Shown piece by piece: positions 12,756 to 49,355 of a stretch of DNA of 49,355 nt. How positions within the stretch are numbered: position 1 is the stretch's first letter; each line of letters starts with the position of its first letter. A program made the position numbers and the translations under genes. The notes below the pieces were generated by a model. It was not told the origin of the DNA. It saw only the letters and a program-made list of their open reading frames with translations, and searched no databases. Source of the stretch: a virus. Location: IMG/VR virus record IMGVR_UViG_3300037458_000975. One strand, 5' to 3'.

Positions 12756-13090
12756 CTCCCGTCCGGCAGGGTTGGATCTACCTCCCTTGGTGGCTCGACC
12801 GGGATTCGCTGTCCGACATCCTCGAGCAGGCCGTTGTCGTGCGGCACGTCGATATCCCTCACGAGCGCCGCACCGCCTTCCTGATCGAGCACCCGGACCT
12901 CATCCTGACCGAGAGCACCTCCTACACCAAGTACAACGTCAGCCTCTCGTCCGGCGGGAAAGTCCGCTTCACCCTGTCCGGTGCGCGGGATGGCCGCTTC
13001 ACCCTTGGAGTCCGTAATGAGAAAAGTGAACAGCTCCGGCCCGACACCAGCCCGAATCCTCCTGGTCGGGGAAGCTCCGGGGGAGAATGA
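12752..13090 (+). CDS. hypothetical protein (112 aa)
   Basis: ATGA overlap at 12752. The 3' 74 nt overlap the polymerase start, so the true C-terminus or the reality of the tail is uncertain. Confidence 0.4.
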   Translation: MTPVRQGWIYLPWWLDRDSLSDILEQAVVVRHVDIPHERRTAFLIEHPDLILTESTSYTKYNVSLSSGGKVRFTLSGARDGRFTLGVRNEKSEQLRPDTSPNPPGRGSSGGE

Positions 13091-15431
13091 GGGGTCCCGC
13101 GGTGAGCCCTTCGTCGGGACCTCGGACTGGTTCCTCGACGGGATGCTGCACGACGCGGGCATCCTGCGGACGGAGTGCAGGCTGACAAACGTCGTCCGCT
13201 ATCGTCCGCCGGGCAACGACCTCACCCAATGGCTCACCCCCAAGAAGAAAGATGCACTCGAGCGCGGCCTGCCGCATTTCGCGGACGGCCTCTGGTACAA
13301 CGACATCGTCGCGGAGGGACTTAATGAACTCGCGCAGGAAATCAAGGAATGCCAGCCGAACGTCATCATCGGCTTTGGCAACACCCCGCTTTGGGCGCTC
13401 ACCGGCAAGACCGGAATCGGCAACTGGCGCGGCTCGGAGCTTGCAACGCGGCAAGGCCCGAAGGCAGTCGTCACCTACCATCCGGCAGGAGTTCTTCGTC
13501 AGTACGAGTGGCGACCCCAGGTCGTGGCCGACCTTCGGCGTGGACTACGCGAAGCAGAGCGACGAGACCTGGTGGTGCCACCTTACGACTTCCTCCTCCG
13601 TCCCACCCTCGCCACCGTTGTCGAGTGGCTCTCCCGCCTCCGCGACCGACTGGCTGTGGGACAGCTTCGACTGTCCGTGGACATCGAAACTCGCCTGGGC
13701 CATATTGCTTGTATTGGTATTGCTGACAGTCGCCACCACGCCCTCTGCATCCCCCTGCTGTGCCTAGAGGACGCCGCGGGCTACTGGTCCGCCGACGACG
13801 AGGTCGCGATCTATCCGCTGCTTCGCGAGGTCCTGACCCACCCGAACGCTCGCATCGTCGGGCAGAACTTCCTCTACGACGCCCAGTACTTCGCCCGCCA
13901 CCTCTACTACATCCCCCGCTGCACCGACGACACGATGCTGATGCAGCATCTCGCCTTTCCCGGATCGCAAAAGTCCCTTGCCTACCTCGCCTCCCTTTAC
14001 TGCGAGCACTACACCTTCTGGAAAGAGGACGGCAAGCTGTGGGACCCGCGCTACATGTCCGAAGACCAGCTCTGGCGCTATAATTGCCTAACAGGGGACA
14101 CACTTATTCTCGACGCTCTCTGCAGCTGGAAAAGGCTCGATACAGTGTCCATCGGTGACGCGCTTCTCGCCTTTGACGAAGAGCCGACAGGAGCGCGCTA
14201 CGCCAGAAAGCTTTCAATAGCATTTGTCACAAACAAGAAAGCAAGTGTTAAACCGACAGTTAAAATCACACTTCGCAATGGTACAACACTGCAAGGGACA
14301 AAAGACCATAAAGTTATGGTTCAAAAAGAGAAGAAATCCGGGCGCTTTATCGGGGTTGAGTGGAAAGAACTTGGGGAGCTTGTGGTTGGCGAGCGCGTGC
14401 TTTCAATTGGACGCCCCTGGGAAAAAGATGATACCTTTTCTGGGGGTTGGTTAGCTGGCATATACGATGGAGAAGGAACCATTGGCGCCAGTTATCAAGA
14501 CGGAAATCACCATTTTCCCAGGATAGGATTTTCACAAAAAGCCGGACGTGTACTGCAACAAGCAGTAGAAACTCTCGAAGCCGCTGGTTTCTCCCTTCGA
14601 GTAGTAGACAAGGGAACAGCGGTTTACGTAGACATCAACGGCGGGCTGGCTGAAAATCTACGTCTCCTTGGAACCTTTCCAACGGTGCGCCTGCAAAACA
14701 CCTTCCTAAAAGGAGCCATGGAACATGGTTGGAGTGGGTTTACACAGATTACTCGACAGGAAGTCCGCAGCATCGAACCTGCTGGAGAAGAAACAGTTTA
14801 CGACATTACTACAACCAGTGGAACTTTTATCGCCAATGGAGTAGTAGTACATAACTGCGAGGACGCTGTCCGCACCTACGAATGCGCGGAGGAGCTCGAT
14901 AAAATCCTTGACACCTTGCAATTCCGGGAGCATTATGTTCACCAAATGCGCCTGTGGCAGGCCACCCTCCGCACCATGCTTCGGGGAGTGCGGATCGACC
15001 AGGGCAGAAAGAACCGACTCGCGATGGAACTGATCGAGGCCGCGGACATCCGCCAGAAGCAGATCAACCTCATCGTGGGGCATGAGCTGAATTGCCGCTC
15101 CCCCCTGCAGATGCGGAAGCTCTTCTACGACGACCTCAAGCTGCCGGAGGTCCATCATCGGAAGTCCGGCAACGTCACGCTGGACGACAAGGCACTCGAG
15201 TCCCTCGCCGGAAAGCAGCCCCTGATCCGGCCGCTCGTTGAGCGCATCCAGCAGCTCCGCTCGATCGGGGTCTTCCTTTCGACCTTCGTCCAGTCCCGCC
15301 TCGACACGGACAACCGAATGCGCTGCTCGTTCAACCCGACCGGGACGGAGACCTTTCGGTTCTCCAGCTCGGAGAACGCGTTCGGGAGCGGCACGAACCT
15401 ACAAAACCTGCCGAAGGGAGATGAGGAATGA
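13017..15431 (+). CDS. DNA polymerase, family A, part 1: UDG-like domain + 3'-5' exonuclease + N-terminal polymerase region (contains intein)
   Basis: The ATG at 13017 has GGAG 6 nt upstream. UDG family-4 motifs: LVGEAPGENE, PFVG, NVVRYRPPGN, YHPAG. Exo I is VDIET and Exo II is GQNFLYDAQY. Exo III (Y-N-[intein]-C-E-D) is interrupted. The ORF ends just after the TGR.SS/NLQNLP motif. Confidence 0.9.
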   Translation: MRKVNSSGPTPARILLVGEAPGENEGSRGEPFVGTSDWFLDGMLHDAGILRTECRLTNVVRYRPPGNDLTQWLTPKKKDALERGLPHFADGLWYNDIVAEGLNELAQEIKECQPNVIIGFGNTPLWALTGKTGIGNWRGSELATRQGPKAVVTYHPAGVLRQYEWRPQVVADLRRGLREAERRDLVVPPYDFLLRPTLATVVEWLSRLRDRLAVGQLRLSVDIETRLGHIACIGIADSRHHALCIPLLCLEDAAGYWSADDEVAIYPLLREVLTHPNARIVGQNFLYDAQYFARHLYYIPRCTDDTMLMQHLAFPGSQKSLAYLASLYCEHYTFWKEDGKLWDPRYMSEDQLWRYNCLTGDTLILDALCSWKRLDTVSIGDALLAFDEEPTGARYARKLSIAFVTNKKASVKPTVKITLRNGTTLQGTKDHKVMVQKEKKSGRFIGVEWKELGELVVGERVLSIGRPWEKDDTFSGGWLAGIYDGEGTIGASYQDGNHHFPRIGFSQKAGRVLQQAVETLEAAGFSLRVVDKGTAVYVDINGGLAENLRLLGTFPTVRLQNTFLKGAMEHGWSGFTQITRQEVRSIEPAGEETVYDITTTSGTFIANGVVVHNCEDAVRTYECAEELDKILDTLQFREHYVHQMRLWQATLRTMLRGVRIDQGRKNRLAMELIEAADIRQKQINLIVGHELNCRSPLQMRKLFYDDLKLPEVHHRKSGNVTLDDKALESLAGKQPLIRPLVERIQQLRSIGVFLSTFVQSRLDTDNRMRCSFNPTGTETFRFSSSENAFGSGTNLQNLPKGDEE
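14085..14855 (+). mobile_element. intein (257 aa) with a single LAGLIDADG motif
   Basis: It begins at Cys (CLTGDTLI, block A) and has block B TKDH. The LAGLIDADG motif is WLAGIYDGEGTIG. It ends VYDITTTSGTFIANGVVVHN, followed by a +1 Cys. Sampled GC is about 37-45%, against about 62% in the flanks. Confidence 0.85.
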
Positions 15432-16186
15432 ACTCCCCCCTCGACTTCCGCCTGCCGAACATCCGCAAGATGTTCATCCCCGATCCCGGCTACACCATCC
15501 TCGACATTGACCAGCGCGGGGCGGACGCTCAGGTCGTCGCCTGGGAAGCCGACGACGCACAACTCAAGGAGGCCTTCCGTGCCGGACTCAAAATCCACGC
15601 AGTTAACGCTAAAGATCTCTTTGGGAACAACGCCGGCCCTGACGGTAAGCGTGAACCCTACTACACCCGGGCCAAGTCTGGAGTTCACCTTACCAATTAC
15701 GGGGGCAAAGCTCGGACTTTGGCAGCTACTCTTGGACTCACTGTCCACGAGGCCGAGTGGTTTCAGCGACGATGGTTCGAGCTGCACCCCGGAGTTCGGG
15801 ACTGGCACAATCGAGTTCGCGCTCAGCTCCAAGCCGAGCGTTCTGTGCGCAACGCTTTCGGTTACCGTCGCTTCTATTTCGAGCGAATCGACGACCGAAC
15901 GCTCAATCAGGCGCTTGCTTGGATTCCCCAGTCAACCGTCGCAATCGTAACCAATCGCGCCTGGACCAACATTGACGAGCAGCTCGACCCGCTGGTCCAG
16001 GTGCTGCTGCAAGTCCACGACTCCCTCGTCCTGCAGACCCCAACCTCCCGCCTCGCCGAAGCCAAGCGCAAGCTCCTCCCCCTTATCCAGATCCCCGTAC
16101 CATACCCTGATCCGTTAACCATCCCCTGGGGTATCAAGTCCTCCGGGGTCTCGTGGGGTGACTGTCAAGACGACAGTTGGGAATAA
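15428..16186 (+). CDS. DNA polymerase, family A, part 2 (palm/fingers, motifs A-C)
   Basis: ATGA overlap in the -1 frame relative to part 1. Motif A region: IRKMFIPDPGYTILDIDQRGADAQVVA. Motif B: RAKSGVHLTNYGG. Motif C: QVHDSLVLQ. Confidence 0.9.
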   Translation: MNSPLDFRLPNIRKMFIPDPGYTILDIDQRGADAQVVAWEADDAQLKEAFRAGLKIHAVNAKDLFGNNAGPDGKREPYYTRAKSGVHLTNYGGKARTLAATLGLTVHEAEWFQRRWFELHPGVRDWHNRVRAQLQAERSVRNAFGYRRFYFERIDDRTLNQALAWIPQSTVAIVTNRAWTNIDEQLDPLVQVLLQVHDSLVLQTPTSRLAEAKRKLLPLIQIPVPYPDPLTIPWGIKSSGVSWGDCQDDSWE

Positions 16187-17425: not shown

Positions 17426-17759
17426 GAAATGGCAACGCCTCGTATCCCGCATCCGGCTGGAGGGCTATTGCTGCCCCCACTCGTTCTTCCGGGAACACGA
17501 CCGCTGGGATTCCCGCTACATCGCGGAGGATCTCGAAATGACCAAACGCGCGGTCCAGTTCTGGCGCGCCAAGTACCGGGCCGGTGCCCTGCTGTGCGAG
17601 CGCAACACGGCCTGTACCCTCACTCCTTCGGAGCGCGGAAGGACTCCTCTACCTCCCGGTAGGTATTGCGATATTTCCGCTGTCCCGGTTGTGCCGCGGT
17701 TTCCTGTTGCATCGTCCGACGACGAGCCTCAAACGAATCCCGAAGAACCTTCGGAGTGA
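17418..17759 (+). CDS. small putative HTH protein (113 aa)
   Basis: It overlaps the previous stop by 8 nt. IAEDLEMTKRAVQFWRAKY is HTH-like. The last ~46 codons overlap the convergent giant gene and look low in complexity. Confidence 0.35.
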   Translation: MAKKWQRLVSRIRLEGYCCPHSFFREHDRWDSRYIAEDLEMTKRAVQFWRAKYRAGALLCERNTACTLTPSERGRTPLPPGRYCDISAVPVVPRFPVASSDDEPQTNPEEPSE

Positions 17760-20700
17760 TCTTGAGCCTCGCATCCGGCACCCGGCTGTTATAGCGCTCG
17801 ATCATCTTCTTCACATCCGCCTGCCCTTCTCGGTCGTCGTAGATCCTCGCCTTGAAGTAGGCCTCCGTGATCTGGCGCTGTTGCGCCATCCAGTACTCCC
17901 GCGTGACGAACTGCTCGAACCGGATCTCCCGCTCAACCGAGGGACCAACCGGCTGGAACCCAAGTCCCCGCATCAGGATCTCCGTCGGGGTTGGCTTGTA
18001 GATCACGCCCTCTCCGGGTCCGCGCACTCCTCCCTCCGCGGCCCAGCGATAGGCCGTCGCCGCACTGCCAGCGGCTCCCGGCATCCGCGAGGCGAGCTCG
18101 CGCGGGGCCATCCCCTCATTCGGCACCCCGTACATCCCAGTCCACACCGCCTTCACAAACCCTCCGAGCGGCCCCATCCAGTCCAGCACAAACGCCCCGA
18201 GATCCTGCAGGGGCTTGCCGGAGCTGAACAGCTTGTCCGTCCCTGGGATGATCCGGCCGAGGCCAATCGACCGGCTGATATCATAGCCTGGCAGGACCTT
18301 CCCATGCCCCAGTCCGTGCATCACCAGCGCCGGGTCAACCTCGAGGGTCTCCTTGACAAACTCCCTCGCGTCCTGCCGAGCGGTCTTCCCGAACATCTTC
18401 CGCCACAGGATGTCCAGCAGATCGAACAGGTTCTCCGCACCCGGCAGTCCCTCGAGCCCGGCCAGCAACAACATCAGCAGATTGATCCGCAGGGTGTAGC
18501 TCTGGTACAGCTTCGGCAGCGGGATCTGCTTCCCACCCAGCTCCGCATTCTCCTCGTTCGCGAACTTGATCTGTGCTCGCAGTCCCCGCTCATACCCTCC
18601 CCACGCGTGCCAGGCCATATGCTGGGTCCACTGCGCGAAGATGAACAGGATCGACTTGTTCCCGCGGAGCAGCTTCGGCCGGTTGACCGTCGTGTAGTCG
18701 TTCTGCAGTAGGCTGGTCTGCTGGGCCGCGTTGAGGAAGGACTCGTTGACTGATTCCCCCATCTCCCGGTGCATCCGATACTGCAACAAGAACGTCGTCA
18801 TCCTCGCCATGTTTTCGGTCCAGGCGAACGGCATCATCCCGTAGTGCATGAAGGCTTCCTTCACCCCCTGCATTGCGGTCCCGACTGCCCCCGGCATCCT
18901 CTCATACATCCGGGAGGTGCCACCTGCGTTCGCCTGGCTCGCGAGGTAGTACGCATACGACTGATCCACCACCCCCTCGCGGATCGCCCGCATCAGGGCC
19001 TCACTCTCCTCGACCGCCCGGAGCTGCGCTTCGCTCGGCTGCGTGCCGGCGGCTTCCGCCCGCTGCACCTCAAGCCTCGCCTGCATGATCTTCTCCGGGT
19101 TGAGCCAGGCCGAACGGAGTGCCGCCATTGCCTTCACCGTCTCCGCCGTCCCTCGCGCCACTCCCAGCCGGGTCGTCGCATCAACCCAAGTCGTCATCAT
19201 TCCGTTCAGATTCAGCAGCGCCGTCTTGACATTGAAGGCGAGGAACCCCGTGCTGACGATCGCCCGGAGCACGTGTAGCTCGTGCGACGGACTCATCACA
19301 TAGTCCTTCGTCTCCCGCGCGAACTCCAGCAGCCGTTCGATCTCGGTCTTCTGCGCGACCTGCTCCGGGGTGATCCCGGCGAGCTTCTCAAACGCATTGA
19401 TCTGCGAGCGGATATCGTTCAGATCCTGCTGCAACATCCAGTTATACCGAAACTTCGCGATCGCGTTCGCCTGGTGCCACGTGAAGCTTGCGATCACCCG
19501 CTGAAGGTTCTTCGACCCACCCTGGACCGAATACGATTCCTTGAACCGCGCGAGCAGCTTGTCCTTCTTCCCCGGCAACATCAAGTTCCGCAGCTTCTCC
19601 GCGTCCTCTTCCGACAGCACCATCTCCCGGACTGCGTCCTCGAAGAACTCGAGCGGCAGGTTCATCAGCACCGCGACTCGGTCGGGGACTTCCTGGAACT
19701 CAACGTTCCCGACTCCGTGCTTCCGTACCAGCTCCGGCACCCGCTTCTCGTACTCCTCCCTCGACTCGAACGCCTCCTTCCGCACGAGGGTTCGGACAAG
19801 TTCACCCTCCTGATCCGGCACCATCGCGTAGACCAGCGCAACATAGTTCCCGAACCACGCCTGCGGCAGAAACGGCACGCTCCGCAACTCCGCCATCTGC
19901 CGGTTGAGCGCGTTGTATTCGAGGACCTGGGCCTCATACTTCGAGAACCTCGCGGGGATGCGGCCGGCCAGCGCGTGCGCGGTGTGGAAGTAGTAGTCAT
20001 CGAAGAGCTGCACCGCCTCCACGAACAGCTTCGCCGTCGTCCTGCCCGCATCTGTCTCGTCCGTGATCCCGAGCCTCTCCAGAAACAGCTTCGTCTGCTC
20101 CGTCGGGATCGCGGTGCGCTGCTCGAGCCCCGCGAACCGGCTTGCCCCCTGCCGGGGCTGCCAGTCCACCATCCACTCTCCCCCGACGAAGTGCTCCGCC
20201 AGCGCCCGCTCCAGCCTCGCCGCGTGCTCCTTCGGCAGTTTCCCCATCGCCTGGAGGAAGTTCTGGGCCTGCTTGTGCAGCGGCGCCGCATGGCGCGTGT
20301 AGGACATCAGATCCGTCGTGAACGAGCTGAGCCCCGGCACCTCCGGGTGCATCCATGCCTTCTGCTGTAGCTGCAGCGTGTGATCCGCGATCTTGTCGAA
20401 CCACCGCAGCGCCTTTCGAGCGATCCCCCCATCCTTCCAGGCCCGCAGCACCGAGATCTTCGCGGAGCCATCGGCGGTTGCCTGCTCGAAATCCGGATCG
20501 GTGTTGACGTCGAGGTGCATCTTCGGGGAGTCGCTGTACGTCATGGACTTCGACGACTTGACCTGCTCCGGCCGAAAGGCAACCCACGAGATGTCGCCCT
20601 CGACCAGGTTCAGGTAGACAAGCCCGTCGTGCCCCCGCTGTTCGAGAAACTGGCGGATTGGGACGAAAATCTCATAGTTGTTAACCGGACTAGGCCCCCC

Positions 20701-23700
20701 CAGCACATAGTCGATTACGATGGTTACTTGATCATACAGGGTACTACTTTCTTGCGGCGTAATCACCCCGCGCGTCTCGAGGAACTTGATCATCCCCGCG
20801 GGGCTCTGCCACATATAGGCCTCTTCTACCCCTACCCACAGCGGATTCCGCAGGTTGAGGAACGCGGGGATGATGTTGGCTTTTAGCGAGTCGGTCGCTT
20901 CGCCGAGGTATACCAGCTTCAAGGTTATTGGGTCCACCGTAAAGGCCTGTCCTGCGGTACTCACCGTCGCCTTCTTCAGCACCTTCCCCTGCGTTTCGAA
21001 CCAGTCCTGTGCCGCCGCCAGGGTTTGAAACTGTGTCTGCGCCAGCCGATTATGCGCCGCCCGCAGCGACCCAAAGTGGAACCCGATATCTTCACTCTTC
21101 TTAAACATTTCATAGTCCGCTCGCGTCCCGTGAAACACCTGCAACGGCACGCTTCCCGAACTCAGCACAGAGATCGACCCAACCTGGGCCTCCCGCGGAA
21201 AGAGCATACCAGAGCGGACCTTGCTACTGCCCTGCGGATCGGCTTCCCAATCCCCGAACCACCCCTTGAAGAATGGGCTCTTCGTGCCCTGCTCAGCCCA
21301 CAGCCGGGTCGCATACGCCCGAACCTCCGGACGAAGCGCGTCTTCCTCGGTCAGAGTCGGGCTTGCCTGATACCCCAGAATTTTTCGCTCGGTCGCTCCC
21401 GCGTGCTCGACGTACCCCACTCCGAGCTCCGCCAGCCGATCCCGCTCCTCCGTCGACAGGTCAAAGTGCACATCCTTCCCAATCTTCTCCCCTATGTAGG
21501 CCGCAACGTCGTCCCAGTACCCGCTGTTAATCCAATCGACGAGCATCTTGAAGTCCCGATGCTTCGGCCCGAAAGTCGGATCAACCGCCTTGATCTGCGC
21601 GATCGCCCACTTCTTGTTCCGCTCCCCCTGCAGCTCCTCCCGTGTCGCCGATTCCTGCAGCGCCGCCGCGAGCTGCTCCTCCTTCGTCAGCACCGGCTCC
21701 GCCACCACCGGCTTGCCCTTCTTCGGCTTCGCCTGCGCGGGCTTCAGTTCGAGCTGCGACACGAACCCCGGGCTCTTCGCTGCGAGGTATCCCGTCAGCC
21801 ACTCCTCGAACTTCACCCCTGGCTTCAGCTTGACCACAAGGGGGTTGCCCTGCGTATCCTTGACCGGCGCCCCCATCGGCAGATAGCTCTTCGTCTGCTT
21901 GTCCCAGACCGGCATCGTGACCTGCACACCGTCCGTCTTGAGCATGACGTACATCCGGCGGAAGGCCTCGACCGCCGATCTCCAGAACCCCTGCGATCTC
22001 GGCGCTGTCTCCGGCACGTTCCGCAGGAACGCATACCGCGCGAGCTGCTCCGACATATACTCATTGATGCTGGCGATGTGCTGCTGCACCCACTCGCGGT
22101 TCTGCTCCGGGGTCGAGGCCGAGCCCTGCGCCATCTTCGCCATCATCATCAGGTACTGCAGCGCGGGCATCGCCTCTGTCGCACGGCGGGCTCCCTCCGC
22201 CTTTGCCGACTTCGTATCATACCCTTCCCGAATGAGCTGCTCCGTGATCTCCCGCGAGGCGAGGGTTTGCTGCATCGCCTTGGCCGGAGCGGCCCACTCG
22301 TTCCGGAACTCCGCGAGGGTCATCTGCCCACCCATCAGTCGGGCATAGCGCTCCTGGTACTCCAGCACAACCGCCCCGGCTTCTGGCGACATCTTGCTGA
22401 GGATTTCCGGCCCGAGCTGGTGCGCCATCAAGTGCGCTTGATTCCGCTCCATCGGGTCGGTCAGGTTTTGAAACAGCGACTCCACGAGGAACGCATGGCC
22501 GAACTCGTGCATCGCGGTGTTCTGCCACTGCAGCAGCCGGCTGAACGTCGCGTTCGAGTTGAAGTTGATCCGGAACGAGCCGTCCGGGTTCCGCGAGGTC
22601 TGCCGTTCGAACCCCGGCAGTTCCTTCGGGACAATGTAGAACGCCTGCGGGCCGAGGTTGATGTGGACCCCATTTACTCCCCGTCCGAGGCTCTGCGTCC
22701 CAATGAACACAGCCCGATCCGGCATCACCACCTTGCGGAACGCCTCGATCACGTCCACCAGCGCGGTCATCGCCAGCGGGCTTCGCCCGAACGTGTCTCC
22801 GAGAGTGCCGACAACGTGAGTGCCCGGGGTAAACTCCACACTTCCCACCGGGCGATTTACCATCTCCGGCACCGAGCTGATCGCGATCGACTGCTTCAGC
22901 GGATCAACCCCGTCGTTCGGGTTCTCCCCGACCTTCTTCGGCTGGGTCGGATGGTAGGCGTCTTGGACTCGCTGCTGCGCATCCCGCAGCTGGTCAACGA
23001 TCGGAGCCATCGACGGGGTTGCGACCTCTGGCGTTTCCTCGATCTGCTTCGCCTGCTGATGCAGCTCCGTCGGGGTGGCCGGAGTTTCGTCCACCGGGAT
23101 CGTCGCCAGGATCTCGTCCAGGCTCCGCTCCGCCCCCAGTTGCTGATCCGCGATCTCCCGTGCTCGTTGCTCCGAGACGGTCTCGGCGACTGCCTGGCCC
23201 TGCAGCACCTGCTCAACCGGCGTCTGCGGCACCGTCGCCGGCTGCCCCATCCGACGCAGTTCCCTCGCCGCATCCCGCTCTTCGAGGGCGTTCTTAACGC
23301 TGGGCGGGATCGAGTCATAGACCCGCTGGGCTGCCCGCTGCTTCGCGGTGAGGTGGCCGAGCGGGGCGTAGATCGTCCCACCAAGCGCCCCCGCAAGGCC
23401 CGCCTGCAGCGAGCTTACCAGCACATCTTCCCAAGACAGCGACGGATCATAGCTGTACTTTGCGTCCGTTGTCTGAATTGCCTGGGTAATGAATTCCTGC
23501 AGTGCCTCCGCGCCCATTACTTCCGCTGCTCGTTGTAGCAGTTTCGGTCCGGTTCGCATCATGACCTTCATCGGGAGCATCTCGAGTGCCCCCTCCGTCA
23601 CCCCAGCAAAGCCTGCCGCACGCCCCGCCGCTCGGGCATCCCCGGTCAGCCGTTCTGCCTCCCCGTAGGTCGCTCCGGCCTGCATCGCTCCGCCACCACC

Positions 23701-24174
23701 GAGACCCACCGCTAGTCCCAACGCCGGGCTCTTCGTCAGCGCAGCCACCCCTAGACCAGCAATCGTGGACGGAGCACTCTCTGCAATGCTTCCGACTACA
23801 CCACCCCAGAAGCCTTCCTGCCCCGCCGGACGTGCCGCGGCTGTCTCCGCTGCTGCCTGTTCCGCGAGCGGTTTCAGCCCCGCCGCTTCGTTCTGCTGCT
23901 TGAGGTATTCCTGCCCCGCGGGCGACTCGGGATACTTCGCCGCTTGCTCCGCCATCCCGCCTTCCTGCATCGACTGCAGTCCGGGCTCAACGAGCATCCG
24001 TTGGAAGTTGATTGCTGCCTCTTTCGCGGCCGGAACAACCCTCCCCGGCACCGAGGCTAGCGATTCCCCGAACGAGGCCTCGCGGAATTGCGTGAGGGCT
24101 TCGGAGATCTGATCATCCGTCGCATCGTCGGGGAAGGAATACAGCCGCCCCTCGGCGGATACCGTTTTCGGCAC
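17620..24174 (-). CDS. giant polyvalent virion/ejection protein (2184 aa) with HExxH metallopeptidase motif and ART-like domain
   Basis: GTG start with AAAGGAG 7 nt upstream. HEFGH at aa 556-560 (nt 22495-22509). A segment at about aa 965-1210 reads FFKGWFGDW...VFHGT...GFHFGS...VEGDISWVAFRPEQVKS. The N-terminus is Gly/Ala-rich and hydrophobic, and the C-terminal third has hydrophobic helices. It is the last gene of the virion arm. Confidence 0.85.
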   Translation of the reverse strand: MPKTVSAEGRLYSFPDDATDDQISEALTQFREASFGESLASVPGRVVPAAKEAAINFQRMLVEPGLQSMQEGGMAEQAAKYPESPAGQEYLKQQNEAAGLKPLAEQAAAETAAARPAGQEGFWGGVVGSIAESAPSTIAGLGVAALTKSPALGLAVGLGGGGAMQAGATYGEAERLTGDARAAGRAAGFAGVTEGALEMLPMKVMMRTGPKLLQRAAEVMGAEALQEFITQAIQTTDAKYSYDPSLSWEDVLVSSLQAGLAGALGGTIYAPLGHLTAKQRAAQRVYDSIPPSVKNALEERDAARELRRMGQPATVPQTPVEQVLQGQAVAETVSEQRAREIADQQLGAERSLDEILATIPVDETPATPTELHQQAKQIEETPEVATPSMAPIVDQLRDAQQRVQDAYHPTQPKKVGENPNDGVDPLKQSIAISSVPEMVNRPVGSVEFTPGTHVVGTLGDTFGRSPLAMTALVDVIEAFRKVVMPDRAVFIGTQSLGRGVNGVHINLGPQAFYIVPKELPGFERQTSRNPDGSFRINFNSNATFSRLLQWQNTAMHEFGHAFLVESLFQNLTDPMERNQAHLMAHQLGPEILSKMSPEAGAVVLEYQERYARLMGGQMTLAEFRNEWAAPAKAMQQTLASREITEQLIREGYDTKSAKAEGARRATEAMPALQYLMMMAKMAQGSASTPEQNREWVQQHIASINEYMSEQLARYAFLRNVPETAPRSQGFWRSAVEAFRRMYVMLKTDGVQVTMPVWDKQTKSYLPMGAPVKDTQGNPLVVKLKPGVKFEEWLTGYLAAKSPGFVSQLELKPAQAKPKKGKPVVAEPVLTKEEQLAAALQESATREELQGERNKKWAIAQIKAVDPTFGPKHRDFKMLVDWINSGYWDDVAAYIGEKIGKDVHFDLSTEERDRLAELGVGYVEHAGATERKILGYQASPTLTEEDALRPEVRAYATRLWAEQGTKSPFFKGWFGDWEADPQGSSKVRSGMLFPREAQVGSISVLSSGSVPLQVFHGTRADYEMFKKSEDIGFHFGSLRAAHNRLAQTQFQTLAAAQDWFETQGKVLKKATVSTAGQAFTVDPITLKLVYLGEATDSLKANIIPAFLNLRNPLWVGVEEAYMWQSPAGMIKFLETRGVITPQESSTLYDQVTIVIDYVLGGPSPVNNYEIFVPIRQFLEQRGHDGLVYLNLVEGDISWVAFRPEQVKSSKSMTYSDSPKMHLDVNTDPDFEQATADGSAKISVLRAWKDGGIARKALRWFDKIADHTLQLQQKAWMHPEVPGLSSFTTDLMSYTRHAAPLHKQAQNFLQAMGKLPKEHAARLERALAEHFVGGEWMVDWQPRQGASRFAGLEQRTAIPTEQTKLFLERLGITDETDAGRTTAKLFVEAVQLFDDYYFHTAHALAGRIPARFSKYEAQVLEYNALNRQMAELRSVPFLPQAWFGNYVALVYAMVPDQEGELVRTLVRKEAFESREEYEKRVPELVRKHGVGNVEFQEVPDRVAVLMNLPLEFFEDAVREMVLSEEDAEKLRNLMLPGKKDKLLARFKESYSVQGGSKNLQRVIASFTWHQANAIAKFRYNWMLQQDLNDIRSQINAFEKLAGITPEQVAQKTEIERLLEFARETKDYVMSPSHELHVLRAIVSTGFLAFNVKTALLNLNGMMTTWVDATTRLGVARGTAETVKAMAALRSAWLNPEKIMQARLEVQRAEAAGTQPSEAQLRAVEESEALMRAIREGVVDQSYAYYLASQANAGGTSRMYERMPGAVGTAMQGVKEAFMHYGMMPFAWTENMARMTTFLLQYRMHREMGESVNESFLNAAQQTSLLQNDYTTVNRPKLLRGNKSILFIFAQWTQHMAWHAWGGYERGLRAQIKFANEENAELGGKQIPLPKLYQSYTLRINLLMLLLAGLEGLPGAENLFDLLDILWRKMFGKTARQDAREFVKETLEVDPALVMHGLGHGKVLPGYDISRSIGLGRIIPGTDKLFSSGKPLQDLGAFVLDWMGPLGGFVKAVWTGMYGVPNEGMAPRELASRMPGAAGSAATAYRWAAEGGVRGPGEGVIYKPTPTEILMRGLGFQPVGPSVEREIRFEQFVTREYWMAQQRQITEAYFKARIYDDREGQADVKKMIERYNSRVPDARLKITPKVLRDSFEARRRTMQQETAAQPGQRKYRNTYREVEESFRAPKE

Positions 24175-34506: not shown

Positions 34507-37500
34507 TTACCTCAGTTTCACCAATCCGACCGCATCTGCGCCGCTCAGGATGTACCCGATTATTCCCGCATCATAAAATTCCGCGATCCTGTTCGAGACG
34601 CCAACCGTCACGTCCAAAGCGTCAGTCCTTGGTCTCCGCTTGCTGGTTCCGTTGGCATTGACGTAAGGCACCGCTGCATCGGCCACAGGCAGACGATCAA
34701 CGTAGAACGTGCCAGGCGCAGTGCGTTCGACGGTGTAAAACTCGCCGTCCGCCTTGAAGATGACGTACTTGTTTAGGAGGCGGGAGAAGATGATCGAAAG
34801 CCCGCTTCCACCTGACGGCGATCCAATAATGATCGGGTCTTGCAAGATCGACACATACGGTCCGGAGCAAACACCCGCTCCGGTGTGCGTCTTGACCATC
34901 GTTGTGCCGCTCACGTCGTACTCTACGAGCCCCATTGTCGTGCCGTTGATCATCCCCCAACGGACGAGCCGCTTGTTGATCGGGTCAATTGCGCACGAAC
35001 CTTGGTGGAAATCAACACCGGAAATCACCGGCTCGCCCATATCGGTCTGCGTCAGCGATGCCTGATTCCAACGAATGACGCGCTTTGAAAGCGTAGGCGC
35101 GTGCAAAATCATGTAGTAAACGTCGCCGGACAGAATGTCCTGACACGTCCACCAAGCATCAAGCGGGATGCCCTGTCCAGCATCGAGCGGTCTTGATTCG
35201 AGATCAAGCGTATACATCATCCGCCCGAACCCTTTTTTCACCCATCGCTTGTCAGCCCACGTCCACGAGTCGAAATACTGACTGTGCCCCTCGTCACCTT
35301 CCTGAAGGTTTCCACAGCCAAATCGAATGTACGTGTCTCGCGCATCGATAAACTGGTTGCACTGATAGACGTGCCCTGAGTTCGGCGTGTCTCCGAGTCC
35401 AGCGATCTGCCCGGTGTTCGGGTTGGTGCGAACAGCAGGCATGGGCGGATCGGACATCGAATTGAGAAGGTCGGTGTCCGAGAGATACCGCAACTGATTC
35501 CAGCGCCTTGTAGGATCAAGCGGGTCCATAGGGCAGCCATTTAAGCCGCCCTCCCATTGACCCGTAATCACGTTTAGCCCCGACTGAAACTCGCCGCGAT
35601 ACCAATGCCGTTTGAAACTGACCGGCGGAACGAGAACCTCCCATCTCGGAGTCTCGGCAAGCAAGCTGATCCCGATCACGTCAACGCATCGAGTTGCAAC
35701 TCCGGGAGCGCCTCCCATCGGGCCGGCGTTGCCGTGGGACATGAGCCACGCGCCCTCCTGACGCGCAGCGCCGCCGGAGAATCCGATACGGCTGTATGGG
35801 TAGCCGAATCCGTTGTGACCGCCAGTCGGACTGAGCATCCCCGCATCAATCCACGGCTGGCGATCGAGGTGGGTGATCATGTCCGAGTTTGGGATGAAGT
35901 AGTGCGTATATGTCGGCAGGTTTTCTAGCCACTGCGGACGCGCCGCCTTCTTCATCGGACCAACGCGCTGCGTCGCCACGACATAAGGCCCCATCGTTGC
36001 GCCCATTCCGGTCGGGGATCGTGGATACTCACGGCCCCCGAGGGTCGTATCGCACAAAACGCCGGACACCTTGATGTCAGGATGACCGCGCAACTTTAGT
36101 CCGGTGGCGTGCAGGCAGCGCACCCCATTGACTTCGCCCCACAACTCACCATCTGCAACAGGCACGCCGTTGCCATAGGCGTCGTAAGGCCCCGTCACCG
36201 TGTTGAGCTTGATCCCGATTTCTACGTCATACGTTTCGTCCGCTTTGAGAAGCGGGAAGCCGGACGAGTGTGACCCGAGCAGGAGAGGTGTAGTAGAGGT
36301 TGCCTCAATGTCCATCGGGTAAAGGTAAATCCCGAGCGGCCAGAGGTCTTTGTACGGTTGCGGAATCGCGTCGTAGCACCGTTTGTGCGCGATGCCGCAA
36401 TCGAAATAAGTGTCCGCCCCAACGCTCATCGTGAGCGACGGCGAGCAATTCGCCATCGCAACAACAAACTCGCCATTTGCATCTGCATTCAGATCCGGGC
36501 CGGAGTACGTGAACTGCGTCGGATTCGTGGAACCCGAGTAGTTGTTGAGCCAGAACTTATCACCCGAGCGCAACACCGAAAGCGTGTTCGGGTATGCGCG
36601 ATAGACGGTGATCGAAGCCGCTCCTGCGCTCACTCCATTTTTGACTCGCAATGGATCTGCGTACCCAGCCGCCCAGCCCGTCTTGGCGGTCAAGCGAGCG
36701 GAACCGCCCGAGAAGAACCCCCATTCGCCGTTCTTGAAGTTGACCGTACCGCCTGCGAGCAACGCCTGAAATGCGCTGCTGTAATCCTCCGGCTTGGATT
36801 CATCATGCTGCACCGGCGTTGCCGTTGTGATGTTCTCGAACAGCCCCGGCGACCACACTCCTTCTGCAATCTTGTGTTCAATGTTGGTGATAACCACTTC
36901 GCCGTTCGCGTCGGACTTGATGTGTTCCCCGCCGCGTTGCGTAGAGTCAAAACGATGTTGGCGGCGAAACGGCTCCGGGTCATACCCGAGATTCTTTGCG
37001 TTGATGTAAGCGTAATACTTCTCTCCGCCACCCTTAGAGATCAGAGTCCAGCAATTCGGCGGTGCCTTGGAAAGCACGATGCTTGTCGTGCCTGCCGGGT
37101 ACGATTGCTTCGGGCGCAACCAATTCGGCATCCAATAACCACGATTGATGTTCCCTCCGTTCCCGGTGACGGACTCAAACGATCCGTTTGCAACGCGATA
37201 GCCCGCCCGGAAATCCAGCATCGACATGAATTTGGTGTTCTGAAGCGGAACAGGTTTGTCGCGCGGGATGAGCGTCCAACGGAACCACGCTTCGTCAACC
37301 TCTGCCTTGCCCTTCAAGACAAAGCGGTTGGTCATCTCCAATCCATCACGGGAACCGTAACTGTCTACCGTATCAAGGACTGAGTCTTCTTCCTTCAGGT
37401 AGTACCACGTCAGCGACGTGCGCCCTCCGAAGGCCGGATCATTCAGCGTCCGTCCAACGGCTTTCCCTTGCCACTTCGTCCGCGTGTTTGATACACCGGC

Positions 37501-38382
37501 CGGATTCCCCGCCCAAGCGCGATCAGGCCAAGTGTATGCGGTCGATTCTGCTTTCCCGTCGAGCCCGGACCACTGCGCGCCCCACCCGTCCTCAAAAGCA
37601 GAGGCCATGTGCACCGCGCTGTCTGCGCCGATTCCAGCGTCAAGCGCCCCGTAAGAATCCACCAAGCCAGTATCGGTTGTTTCGAGTCCGACGAAATCGC
37701 TCGGCAGAACAAGCAGCCTCGGGGTGTTGACCTCGTACACGTTCAACGAGCTACCGGAGATATAGATGCCCGTGACGTTTAGGCGAATCCTCGCGTCCGT
37801 GATCGTGCCAGTAGGCAATGCCGAAAGGTCGAATTGCAGAATCGTGGAAGGGCCGGTTTCGATAGTCAGCGATTGCTGACCTAACGCAAGCGCAGGGCTT
37901 GCGTCTTGTGAAGCGGAAATGCTCCCGCTGCATGTGCACGGGCAAACTGTCGTTACCCCGCCAATTGTGACGCGCAGAGTCGGAGGCGTTGACCCTAGGC
38001 GAGAGTTGAAGCTGAAATACGTCCCGCCAGAGCGGATGAGTGCTCCGCGATTGGACGCGCGCCACCGCTCAACCAATGCAACGATCCCGGCCCCGGAGAT
38101 GTCGTACTGTCCGAGTGCCGTAGGCCCAACAGGAGAAGCAAACGCATTTGCCCCTTGTGGAGACTGGTTCGCGTCAAGCCAATCACCTGTTCCTCCGTTG
38201 GCCCACGGAATCGCGATCCCGGCATTCCATGAGTCGCCCCGCATCCCGGCGATGCCGTCGTAAAGCTGGGTGTATGAAGAGGTGGACGGCGCTGGTGCCG
38301 GACGATTGACCGACAGCGCGCCAGAGAGCGAGAGCCGCCCCACCGGCCCCACGAGCCCGCTCCGCACCCCGCGCAGCCTCAC
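34507..38382 (-). CDS. large tail spike/receptor-binding protein (1291 aa), possible carbohydrate-binding or depolymerase function
   Basis: GTG start with GAGGAGG 9 nt upstream. The N-terminal region contains ILQFDLSALPTGTITDARIRLNV (DNRLRE-like pattern). The C-terminal part looks propeller-like. GC is lower than the genome average. Confidence 0.55.
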   Translation of the reverse strand: MRLRGVRSGLVGPVGRLSLSGALSVNRPAPAPSTSSYTQLYDGIAGMRGDSWNAGIAIPWANGGTGDWLDANQSPQGANAFASPVGPTALGQYDISGAGIVALVERWRASNRGALIRSGGTYFSFNSRLGSTPPTLRVTIGGVTTVCPCTCSGSISASQDASPALALGQQSLTIETGPSTILQFDLSALPTGTITDARIRLNVTGIYISGSSLNVYEVNTPRLLVLPSDFVGLETTDTGLVDSYGALDAGIGADSAVHMASAFEDGWGAQWSGLDGKAESTAYTWPDRAWAGNPAGVSNTRTKWQGKAVGRTLNDPAFGGRTSLTWYYLKEEDSVLDTVDSYGSRDGLEMTNRFVLKGKAEVDEAWFRWTLIPRDKPVPLQNTKFMSMLDFRAGYRVANGSFESVTGNGGNINRGYWMPNWLRPKQSYPAGTTSIVLSKAPPNCWTLISKGGGEKYYAYINAKNLGYDPEPFRRQHRFDSTQRGGEHIKSDANGEVVITNIEHKIAEGVWSPGLFENITTATPVQHDESKPEDYSSAFQALLAGGTVNFKNGEWGFFSGGSARLTAKTGWAAGYADPLRVKNGVSAGAASITVYRAYPNTLSVLRSGDKFWLNNYSGSTNPTQFTYSGPDLNADANGEFVVAMANCSPSLTMSVGADTYFDCGIAHKRCYDAIPQPYKDLWPLGIYLYPMDIEATSTTPLLLGSHSSGFPLLKADETYDVEIGIKLNTVTGPYDAYGNGVPVADGELWGEVNGVRCLHATGLKLRGHPDIKVSGVLCDTTLGGREYPRSPTGMGATMGPYVVATQRVGPMKKAARPQWLENLPTYTHYFIPNSDMITHLDRQPWIDAGMLSPTGGHNGFGYPYSRIGFSGGAARQEGAWLMSHGNAGPMGGAPGVATRCVDVIGISLLAETPRWEVLVPPVSFKRHWYRGEFQSGLNVITGQWEGGLNGCPMDPLDPTRRWNQLRYLSDTDLLNSMSDPPMPAVRTNPNTGQIAGLGDTPNSGHVYQCNQFIDARDTYIRFGCGNLQEGDEGHSQYFDSWTWADKRWVKKGFGRMMYTLDLESRPLDAGQGIPLDAWWTCQDILSGDVYYMILHAPTLSKRVIRWNQASLTQTDMGEPVISGVDFHQGSCAIDPINKRLVRWGMINGTTMGLVEYDVSGTTMVKTHTGAGVCSGPYVSILQDPIIIGSPSGGSGLSIIFSRLLNKYVIFKADGEFYTVERTAPGTFYVDRLPVADAAVPYVNANGTSKRRPRTDALDVTVGVSNRIAEFYDAGIIGYILSGADAVGLVKLR

Positions 38383-48852: not shown

Positions 48853-49323
48853 ATGACGACGCAACGGAAGAGGTATTGCACATGGTCGCGCGGGCCGGTC
48901 GATGGCGCGCTGGTTGGGACATTCGCGGACGGGAAGGTGGTGCGGTATCCGCTCGCGGATATTCACCCGGATTGCGTTCCCCTGGTGATGGAGTTCGGCG
49001 CGAAACAGAAAATGGCCTCGGACGCGGCGGAGGCGAACAACGTGCAGGAGTTCCGCGACATCGTGACGGAAACGTGGACCAACCTCACGGCCGGCACATT
49101 CTACCGCACGACGAGCGGATTCCCGTCCCGCACTCTCGTCATCGAAGCGTTGATGCGGCTCGTCCCGAAAGACAAGGCGGCGAAAGTCACCGCGCAATCG
49201 GATGAGAAGTTGAAGATGCTCGCGAAGCGCCGGGATGTGCGGGAGATGATGCTCAAGATCCAGGCCGAACGGATCAAGGCCGCCCCGCAGGAAGCCGACG
49301 CGCCGATCGAACTGGACAACTAA
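48853..49323 (+). CDS. hypothetical early protein (156 aa), paralog of 1542..2036
   Basis: GGAGAGG RBS. It is the first gene after the early promoter, and its 3' end lies in the terminal repeat. Confidence 0.7.
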   Translation: MTTQRKRYCTWSRGPVDGALVGTFADGKVVRYPLADIHPDCVPLVMEFGAKQKMASDAAEANNVQEFRDIVTETWTNLTAGTFYRTTSGFPSRTLVIEALMRLVPKDKAAKVTAQSDEKLKMLAKRRDVREMMLKIQAERIKAAPQEADAPIELDN

Positions 49324-49355
49324 CCCAACCGGGGCCGGGAAACCGGCCCCACAAT
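49229..49355. repeat. 127-bp terminal direct repeat (right copy)
   Basis: Identical to 1..127. Confidence 0.95.
49331..49350 (+). promoter_or_regulatory. hairpin ggggccgg-GAAA-ccggcccc (also at 105..124)
   Basis: An 8-bp GC stem with a GNRA loop, 8 nt after the stop codon. There is no U-tract, so it is not a classical terminator. Confidence 0.4.

Follow-up and report, generated by a model that had tools for sequence, protein, structure and literature searches.

A compact single-LAGLIDADG intein inserted in the Exo III motif of a phage family A DNA polymerase

Inteins of the Pham3880-g group of mycobacteriophages have been catalogued, and an MBP-intein-GFP reporter demonstrated the splicing of one of them, the intein of ScottMcG gp245 (Kelley et al., 2016, PMC5050341). 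The endonuclease assays used the TerL inteins of BAKA and Bethlehem, which are described with two LAGLIDADG motifs (PMC5050341), and a 2025 survey of actinophage inteins listed no family A polymerase as a host (10.1101/2025.01.02.630785). LAGLIDADG enzymes with a single motif act as homodimers on pseudo-palindromic sites (PMC2655683). Here we describe a relative of the Pham3880-g inteins that is located in the proofreading domain of the family A polymerase of a phage represented by the IMG/VR record IMGVR_UViG_3300037458_000975. The whole stretch of DNA analysed, hereafter the window, is 49,355 nt long, and all features given below lie on its + strand unless stated otherwise. We propose that the element is a mobile class-1 intein that splices and homes via a probable intein dimer, an explanation to which, taken as a whole, we assign a probability of roughly 0.85.

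The intein and the Exo III motif that it interrupts

The intein occupies 771 nt (14085..14855), that is, 257 aa, in frame within the open reading frame (ORF) 12981/13017..15431. The junctions read QLWRYN/CLTGDTLIL...GVVVHN/CEDAVRTYE (slashes mark the intein ends), and the boundaries and length proposed in an earlier note, made from the letters of this DNA without database searches, proved to be exact: Cys1 is encoded by TGC at 14085–14087, the terminal His-Asn by CAT AAC at 14850–14855 and the +1 Cys by TGC at 14856–14858. The splicing blocks named in that note (A, B, F and G, with the terminal His-Asn and the +1 Cys) were all recovered, and their conservation was followed in an alignment of 123 inteins, which included 122 complete members of the family described below and the intein of the window. 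Block A (CLTGDTLIL, 14085..14111) begins with the first nucleophile, Cys1, which was present in all 123 sequences, and T6 and L9 were found in 121 of 123 each. In block B (TKDH, 14298..14309, containing Thr72 and His75) the histidine was invariant (123/123) and 122 of the 123 sequences had Ser or Thr at position 72. Blocks F and G, ETVYDITTTSGTFIANGVVVHN (14790..14855), end in His256-Asn257, both kept in 123/123, and T243, T247, A250 and G252 were each present in at least 122 of the 123 sequences. The +1 residue of the family members was Cys in 61, Ser in 54 and Thr in seven cases, and the C-terminus of the window intein could be aligned with those of the NpuDnaB, Spl DnaX and Neq Pol inteins. 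All splicing residues are in place, and we classify the element as a class-1 intein.

Both the Pfam Intein_splicing score (42.6 bits vs. a cut-off of 35.8) and a profile hidden Markov model (HMM) built from the 123 inteins placed the match far beyond chance; the latter aligned end to end (HMM positions 1–251 of 251) with 233 bits, and this was its sole match in a six-frame scan of the window. An AlphaFold2 (AF2) run with a three-sequence alignment gave a pLDDT of 50 and was discarded, and the model used in its place, calculated from a 37-sequence alignment, reached a pLDDT of 96.1 and a pTM of 0.91. Foldseek recognized a Hint fold in this model, with a probability of 1.00 to solved inteins and the hedgehog Hint domain, and the best PDB matches were inteins (PhoVMA, TliVMA, PI-PfuI, PI-SceI, and mini-inteins, with E-values down to 7e-10). 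By analogy with ScottMcG gp245, a family member that splices, and because the insertion site is essential, the intein is expected to be removed from the window polymerase by splicing.

When the predicted spliced sequence was compared with 11 intein-less homologues (48–59% identity), no gap was required at the junction, where EDQLWRYN/CEDAVRTYE corresponds to the homologue pattern EDQLWxYNC[KE]D[AC]VxT[YF]E. The insertion point lies between the second and third residues of the Y-x3-D motif, as the N-extein ends with the Tyr-Asn of Exo III (14079–14084). In the 12 sequences (window and 11 homologues), Y355, N356, and D359 of Exo III were invariant, and Cys357, which serves as the +1 residue, was native in 11. 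The other two exonuclease motifs were found in the expected order, Exo I as DIETR (13680..13694, with the metal ligands D222 and E224) and Exo II as NFLYD (13866..13880, with N284, Y287, and D288), all five residues being invariant in 12/12. The Pfam exonuclease profile (PF01612) covered positions 23–151 of 173 with 32.5 bits in the precursor and positions 23–172 of 173 with 43.5 bits once the intein had been removed. At the DNA level the spliced junction of the window would read ...CTCTGGCGCTATAAT/TGCGAGGACGCTGTC..., and the syntenic contig L001 carries an intein-less allele with the sequence ...TGGGCGTATAAC/TGCAAGGAT.... Judged from these alignments, removal of the intein rebuilds the invariant Y-N-C-E-D motif, as the earlier note had predicted from the flanks. 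Neither the isolated exonuclease domain nor a profile of 12 sequences built on it retrieved a relative from the PDB; since no solved Klenow-type exonuclease could be aligned, the mapping of Exo III rests on the coverage of PF01612 and on the order of the motifs. We take the Tyr and Asp of the window motif to be equivalent to Y497 and D501 of Klenow, as in DEDDy exonucleases. The unspliced precursor would be unable to proofread, because the insertion splits the catalytic Exo III motif. The gene should be annotated as the N-terminal part of a uracil-DNA glycosylase (UDG)-exonuclease-polymerase with an intein, whose splicing would be needed before proofreading.

A large family of compact inteins with one LAGLIDADG unit

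Only three matches were obtained when the intein alone was used as the query in a word-indexed protein search. The near-orphan status suggested by this result was rejected as a sensitivity artefact of the method, as an exhaustive HMMER search with a three-sequence profile against 1.84 billion cluster representatives (clusters at 50% identity) found thousands of relatives: 4836 matches, including 2735 at E<=1e-10 and 757 at E<=1e-30. Among the matches listed, all 150 spanned stretches of approximately 200–220 residues. The 122 complete inteins that were extracted had lengths of 237–286 aa with a median of 256 aa, so the rarity that had been implied for a 257-aa element with a single motif did not hold: this build is the norm in a very large intein family, of which the window intein is a member. 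The host proteins of the family include large terminases, Mgm101 and ERF annealing proteins, UvrD-type helicases, RecA, family A polymerases, C5 methylase, RNA ligase, and some sugar-modifying enzymes. Hosts outside DNA metabolism were also seen, namely CDP-glycerol glycerophosphotransferase (three members) and a protein of the NAD-dependent epimerase/RmlD-like/GDP-mannose dehydratase type (one member), both of which are unusual for inteins.

The family is also present in cultured phages. A tblastn search of GenBank phages with the window intein returned 164 records, each with 100% query coverage, among them Gordonia phages (intein in the portal protein), cluster C1 mycobacteriophages (in the terminase-like Pham3880 proteins such as Cali gp243 and ScottMcG gp245) and Ralstonia phages (in the large terminase); the ScottMcG gp245 intein gave the same kind of match to the window intein. 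The family HMM aligned end to end with the 269-aa intein of Cali gp243 (259 bits) and with the 275-aa intein of Minos gp8 (228 bits). The Bethlehem TerL intein, whose endonuclease is active, was tried as a candidate member and was rejected by the HMM test. The best viral structure match, in BFVD, was a 1007-aa protein that superposed over the whole intein (TMq 0.87, rmsd 3.6 Å); the entry has no name and shares its length with Cali gp243. None of the cultured phages in the GenBank collection carried the compact family in a polymerase according to tblastn.

Between blocks B and F the window intein contains a nested homing-endonuclease domain (14418..14729), which was delimited from the AF2 model and profile matches. 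In the model it forms a single alpha-beta-beta-alpha-beta-beta-alpha unit composed of the LAGLIDADG helix (118–130), strands 131–137 and 143–151, helix 155–166, strands 171–175 and 180–184, and helices 187–197 and 201–213. The LAGLIDADG motif, GWLAGIYDGEG (14445..14477), contains the putative catalytic Glu130, which was found in 123/123 family members. Two further putative active-site residues, Gln151 (14535–14537) and Arg202 (14688–14690), were each kept in 122/123, the latter being replaced by Lys in the remaining sequence, and Asp128 was kept in 120/123. These four residues were as conserved as the splicing residues, and the small-residue pattern A124/G125 on the LAGLIDADG helix was conserved as well. 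Glu130, Gln151, and Arg202 aligned to the I-AniI segments FIEAEG, IAQR, and PVKLL (E, Q, and K), presumably at the active-site residues E148, Q171, and K227 of that enzyme.

The earlier note had seen only one LAGLIDADG motif in a small intein and had proposed a structure prediction of the insert, and the sequence, the profiles and the AF2 model agree on a single unit. No second LAGLIDADG unit was found in the chain: about 100 residues separate the motif from block F, and the LRLLG helix has no acidic residue. A profile of the insert matched I-HjeMI and I-AniI (residues 133–229) by one half at a time, and it also matched the second half of PI-PfuI and each of the two halves of single-chain I-MsoI. 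Of 27 family inserts, 25 matched the LAGLIDADG_3 domain (E<=0.1) in a summary that does not give repeat counts per insert. Two-motif inteins matched the model with a TMq of only 0.45–0.50, which is consistent with half of the two-motif nuclease having no counterpart in the predicted structure of the window intein. This half-endonuclease architecture is widespread and conserved, and apparently uncharacterised, in a family of approximately 256-aa inteins in which the presumed catalytic residues are no less strictly conserved than those for splicing.

Distribution, composition, and the case for homing

A check for intein-less alleles, as the earlier note had proposed, revealed that these are the rule among the relatives of the window polymerase. 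The word-indexed protein search with the host polymerase found 1769 homologues; among the best 120 of these, intein Pfam domains were present in the window protein only, the other 119 being without them. The intein is also missing from L001, in which the gene order is ParB-methyltransferase, polymerase N-part, polymerase C-part, and DUF3987 protein. IMG/VR contained 476 polymerase relatives, and the 80 loci fetched were all uninterrupted; as one of the two search patterns, YNC[KE]D[AC]V, spans the splice junction, these 80 loci do not give an unbiased frequency of occupancy. Close copies of the window intein were not found in IMG/VR.

The earlier note had also asked whether the insertion site was known. 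Inteins of the same family occupy the identical YN/C...HN/C[KER]D site in at least five other divergent polymerases (P0150, P0158, P0169, P0234, and P0245), the exteins of which are 31–41% identical to the window polymerase. Their inteins share 50%, 47%, 45%, 31%, and 45% identity, respectively, with that of the window, and the inteins of other host proteins share 25–39%. Thus, four of the five Exo III-site inteins are closer to the window intein than any other member is, P0234 being the exception. The identical insertion point and the closest intein relatives together give the pattern of an intein allele group. All five polymerases are unannotated, and no publication on them was found. A full-text search, which had most subscription journals outside its scope, found no paper on an intein in the Exo III motif of a family A polymerase, and we regard this as a lead rather than as a proof of novelty. 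These occurrences suggest that homing has repeatedly targeted the Exo III coding sequence in this polymerase family, which is widespread among environmental phages; the site offers both an invariant catalytic motif and a cysteine already in place for the +1 position.

Inteins of the family were also found at other sites of family A polymerases (P0137, P0144, P0252, P0170, P0142, P0126, P0134, and P0250), often two per protein. Examples of these sites are the position after motif A (LSVDY/C), the SGRLSS/NLQN region (here the slash separates two sequence names), the UDG domain (GRPF/C), and the vicinity of motif C (VHDSIT/C).

The composition of the intein differs from that of its surroundings. 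Its mean GC content was 48.4%, with 44.5–50% in 200-nt windows, and the flanks had 61–63%. The drop reported in the earlier note is therefore real, but the range given there (about 37–45%) was overstated, since values of 36–37% are only local minima, the lowest 100-nt value being 0.36 at 14238. Third codon positions showed a much clearer contrast: their GC content (GC3) was 0.42 in the intein, 0.78 in the N-extein, and 0.84 in the C-extein. The upstream boundary was sharp, with a GC3 of 0.87 up to the junction. On the downstream side GC3 was 0.63–0.67 for approximately 130 nt (14838–14987) and then rose to 0.83–0.93, and this intermediate zone may be a one-sided co-conversion tract from a donor allele. 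The low GC3 and the rarity of the intein among homologues point to its recent arrival by horizontal transfer.

These observations can be joined in the following mechanism. The gene would be translated as one precursor, from which the Hint-fold domain would excise 257 residues and join the Asn to the +1 Cys, using Cys1, Thr72/His75, blocks F and G, and the terminal His-Asn, with the native cysteine of Exo III as the +1 nucleophile. Splicing would restore Exo III and yield an intact N-terminal exonuclease-polymerase subunit. Two intein molecules would pair through their LAGLIDADG helices into an active nuclease. During co-infection, this dimer would cleave alleles without the intein within their conserved Exo III coding sequence, whereupon recombinational repair would copy the intein into the cut allele. 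There is very strong support for the ordinary explanation, namely that a selfish mobile intein has settled in a replication protein, at a conserved catalytic motif. We infer from the conservation of the nuclease residues, the sporadic distribution, the recurrence at one site, and the foreign composition that the element spreads by homing and that its nuclease is active now or was so until recently. The active enzyme probably consists of two inteins in a homodimer, since a LAGLIDADG active site forms where two units meet and each intein has one unit. The extension of this to the whole compact family (at least 757 clusters at 50% identity), all of whose members would then carry an obligately homodimeric homing endonuclease formed by two intein molecules or unspliced precursors, is tentative, and we rate its chances at a little below even.

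Several results weigh against the nuclease part of the proposed mechanism. The LAGLIDADG_3 profile matched the window intein in one stretch with 16–18 bits, under the Pfam cut-off of 22.5. In the four homing sites compared (window, L001, Cali, and Minos; reconstituted or empty), 5–6 of 11 pairs were symmetric, no better than in shuffled sequences, although this palindrome test is weak either way because the natural sites of homodimeric enzymes are themselves degenerate. No published endonuclease assay of a compact-family member was found in the literature searched. The lack of palindromic symmetry and of a cleavage assay, together with the single LAGLIDADG unit per chain and the absence of a second LAGLIDADG protein encoded in the window, would also suit an intein that splices but whose endonuclease is a non-functional remnant, one half of which was lost in the family ancestor and the rest of which was kept as a structural plug for the folding of the splicing domain; ordinary recombination or nucleases acting in trans would then have to account for its spread. 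Decaying endonucleases lose catalytic residues of this kind first, whereas the metal-binding Glu130 (123/123), Gln151 (122/123), Arg202 (122/123), and the DGEG sequence are kept across inteins that are only 25–50% identical and reside in dozens of unrelated hosts. Moreover, the sporadic distribution, the recurrent use of the Exo III site in divergent polymerases, and the foreign codon composition indicate ongoing homing. We therefore consider the decayed endonuclease unlikely, if still the most serious competitor of an active one.

Two further explanations concern the fate of the insert rather than its nuclease. The intein could be kept for regulation, as a conditional switch (e.g., a redox-sensitive one acting through Cys1 and the +1 Cys) that delays maturation of the polymerase-exonuclease. 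Both nucleophiles are indeed cysteines, the insertion lies within a catalytic motif so that the precursor would lack proofreading, and conditional splicing has been described for other inteins. Nevertheless, the element is missing from 119 of the best 120 homologues and from the syntenic relative L001, the +1 residue varies between C, S, and T across the family, and no sequence feature specifically indicates regulation, which makes this role quite improbable. That the insert stays in the protein, either as a tolerated domain insertion or as a disruption that abolishes proofreading, is scarcely credible: all splicing residues are present and invariant in the family, an invariant catalytic motif would stay split, and a family member splices experimentally (PMC5050341).

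If homing by active intein dimers is true, it would represent a mode of intein homing that we did not find described, in which homing would depend on intein concentration. To our knowledge, every intein endonuclease with a biochemical characterisation is a two-motif monomer. No paper on single-motif LAGLIDADG inteins or on dimeric intein nucleases was found in a search that left most subscription journals outside, which is not a proof of novelty. Such inteins would also be natural, very small (approximately 250 aa) modules combining splicing and nuclease functions, and a new set of I-CreI-like scaffolds.

The host polymerase, its genome, and comparison with described systems

The intein-bearing ORF (12981..15431) was called mechanically from a GTG start at 12981 and encodes 816 aa. 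Translation likely starts at the ATG at 13017, because the N-termini of homologues align to MRKVNSSGP and a GGAG sequence lies 9 nt upstream of 13017. Pfam recognized in the 816-aa product a family-4 UDG, a family A 3′–5′ exonuclease, the intein splicing domain together with a Hint module, and DNA_pol_A, of which the N-terminal third is present. The N-extein (13017..14084) consists of the family-4 UDG-like domain (Pfam UDG, 3.5e-22) and the 3′–5′ exonuclease (DNA_pol_A_exo1). The C-extein (14856..15431), which aligned with homologues without gaps, includes the +1 Cys, the rest of Exo III (C-E-D) and the polymerase thumb/fingers up to NLQNLPKGDEE and the stop codon, and it covers positions 10–135 of the DNA_pol_A profile. 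A separate ORF (15428..16186) encodes the C-terminal third of the polymerase with motifs A to C (QVHDS) and matches DNA_pol_A positions 140–354 (6e-27); it is part of the host polymerase and not of the intein. A megablast search with the polymerase region found no match among 50,697 phage records.

The two polymerase ORFs are in different frames and overlap by ATGA, the N-part ending with NLQNLPKGDEE-TGA and the C-part starting with the ATG at 15428. The KGDEE codons (AAG GGA GAT GAG GAA) also serve as the Shine–Dalgarno sequence of the downstream ORF. An identical linker break was present in the syntenic relative L001/L002 (L001 4586–4656), and a break in the same linker was seen in six more related loci (L005, L008, L011, L019, L035, and one other). 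Eleven of 82 polymerase loci were scored as split, three of these at another place, and 43 as fused. The recurrence of the same linker break among related loci points to a two-subunit form of the polymerase and not to an assembly error. A homologous polymerase of Caulobacter phage Kuura (L086, OQ067476, 1474–4878) is broken approximately 15 residues upstream of Exo III: gp029 ends with FKQGN, gp026 begins just ahead of RLWAYNGLDCV, and the two genes are separated by two small ORFs of 99 and 103 aa, both of unknown function. No intein was found at this break, and a group I intron was rejected as its cause after Rfam had given no match. The Kuura break is another kind of interruption adjoining the same Exo III motif.

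The window has a GC content of 61.7% and is a phage genome of approximately 49 kb, encoding a large terminase, a portal protein, a primase-like protein, a ParB-methyltransferase, and a Sak4-like annealing protein. An exact 127-bp direct repeat is present at its two ends (1–127 and 49229–49355), which is consistent with a complete genome of approximately 49.2 kb, either circularly assembled or terminally redundant. A 2184-aa ORF lies on the − strand directly downstream of the replication module (17620–24174), and a 1291-aa ORF at 34507–38382 had no PHROG match.

Among the described systems, the canonical inteins PI-SceI, PI-PfuI, and Pho/Tli VMA resemble the window intein in having a LAGLIDADG endonuclease that is embedded in a Hint splicing domain, between blocks B and F, but they are monomers of 360–540 aa with two LAGLIDADG units per chain. 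I-CreI and I-MsoI share with it the single LAGLIDADG unit per chain, the conserved terminal acidic residue, and the Gln after beta-2, whereas they are free-standing, intron-encoded enzymes with weak sequence similarity to the insert (E-values of 0.07–0.8), and sites of their type are pseudo-palindromic, unlike the homing sites of the window family, in which such symmetry was not detectable. The metagenomic UDG-exo-PolA homologues have the same YN/C insertion point and an intein of the same family; the polymerases of P0150, P0169, P0234, and P0245 are single fused ORFs, in contrast to the split polymerase of the window. The papers on the Pham3880-g and Gordonia inteins contained no comment on a single-motif endonuclease that we could find. 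The Pham3880-g inteins (ScottMcG gp245 and Cali gp243) and the Gordonia portal inteins (Minos gp8) are 28–32% identical to the window intein over 100% of its length, and like it they are compact (269–275 aa) with a single GYLAGxxDGEG motif and an LRFLGxxRPxRLL helix. They differ in their terminase-like or portal host proteins, in their insertion sites, and in a +1 Ser or Thr in place of the Cys of the window, and the hosts of these phages are Actinobacteria. Accordingly, the window intein belongs to a family already catalogued in actinobacteriophages, while its host protein and insertion site are new to what is known from cultured phages.

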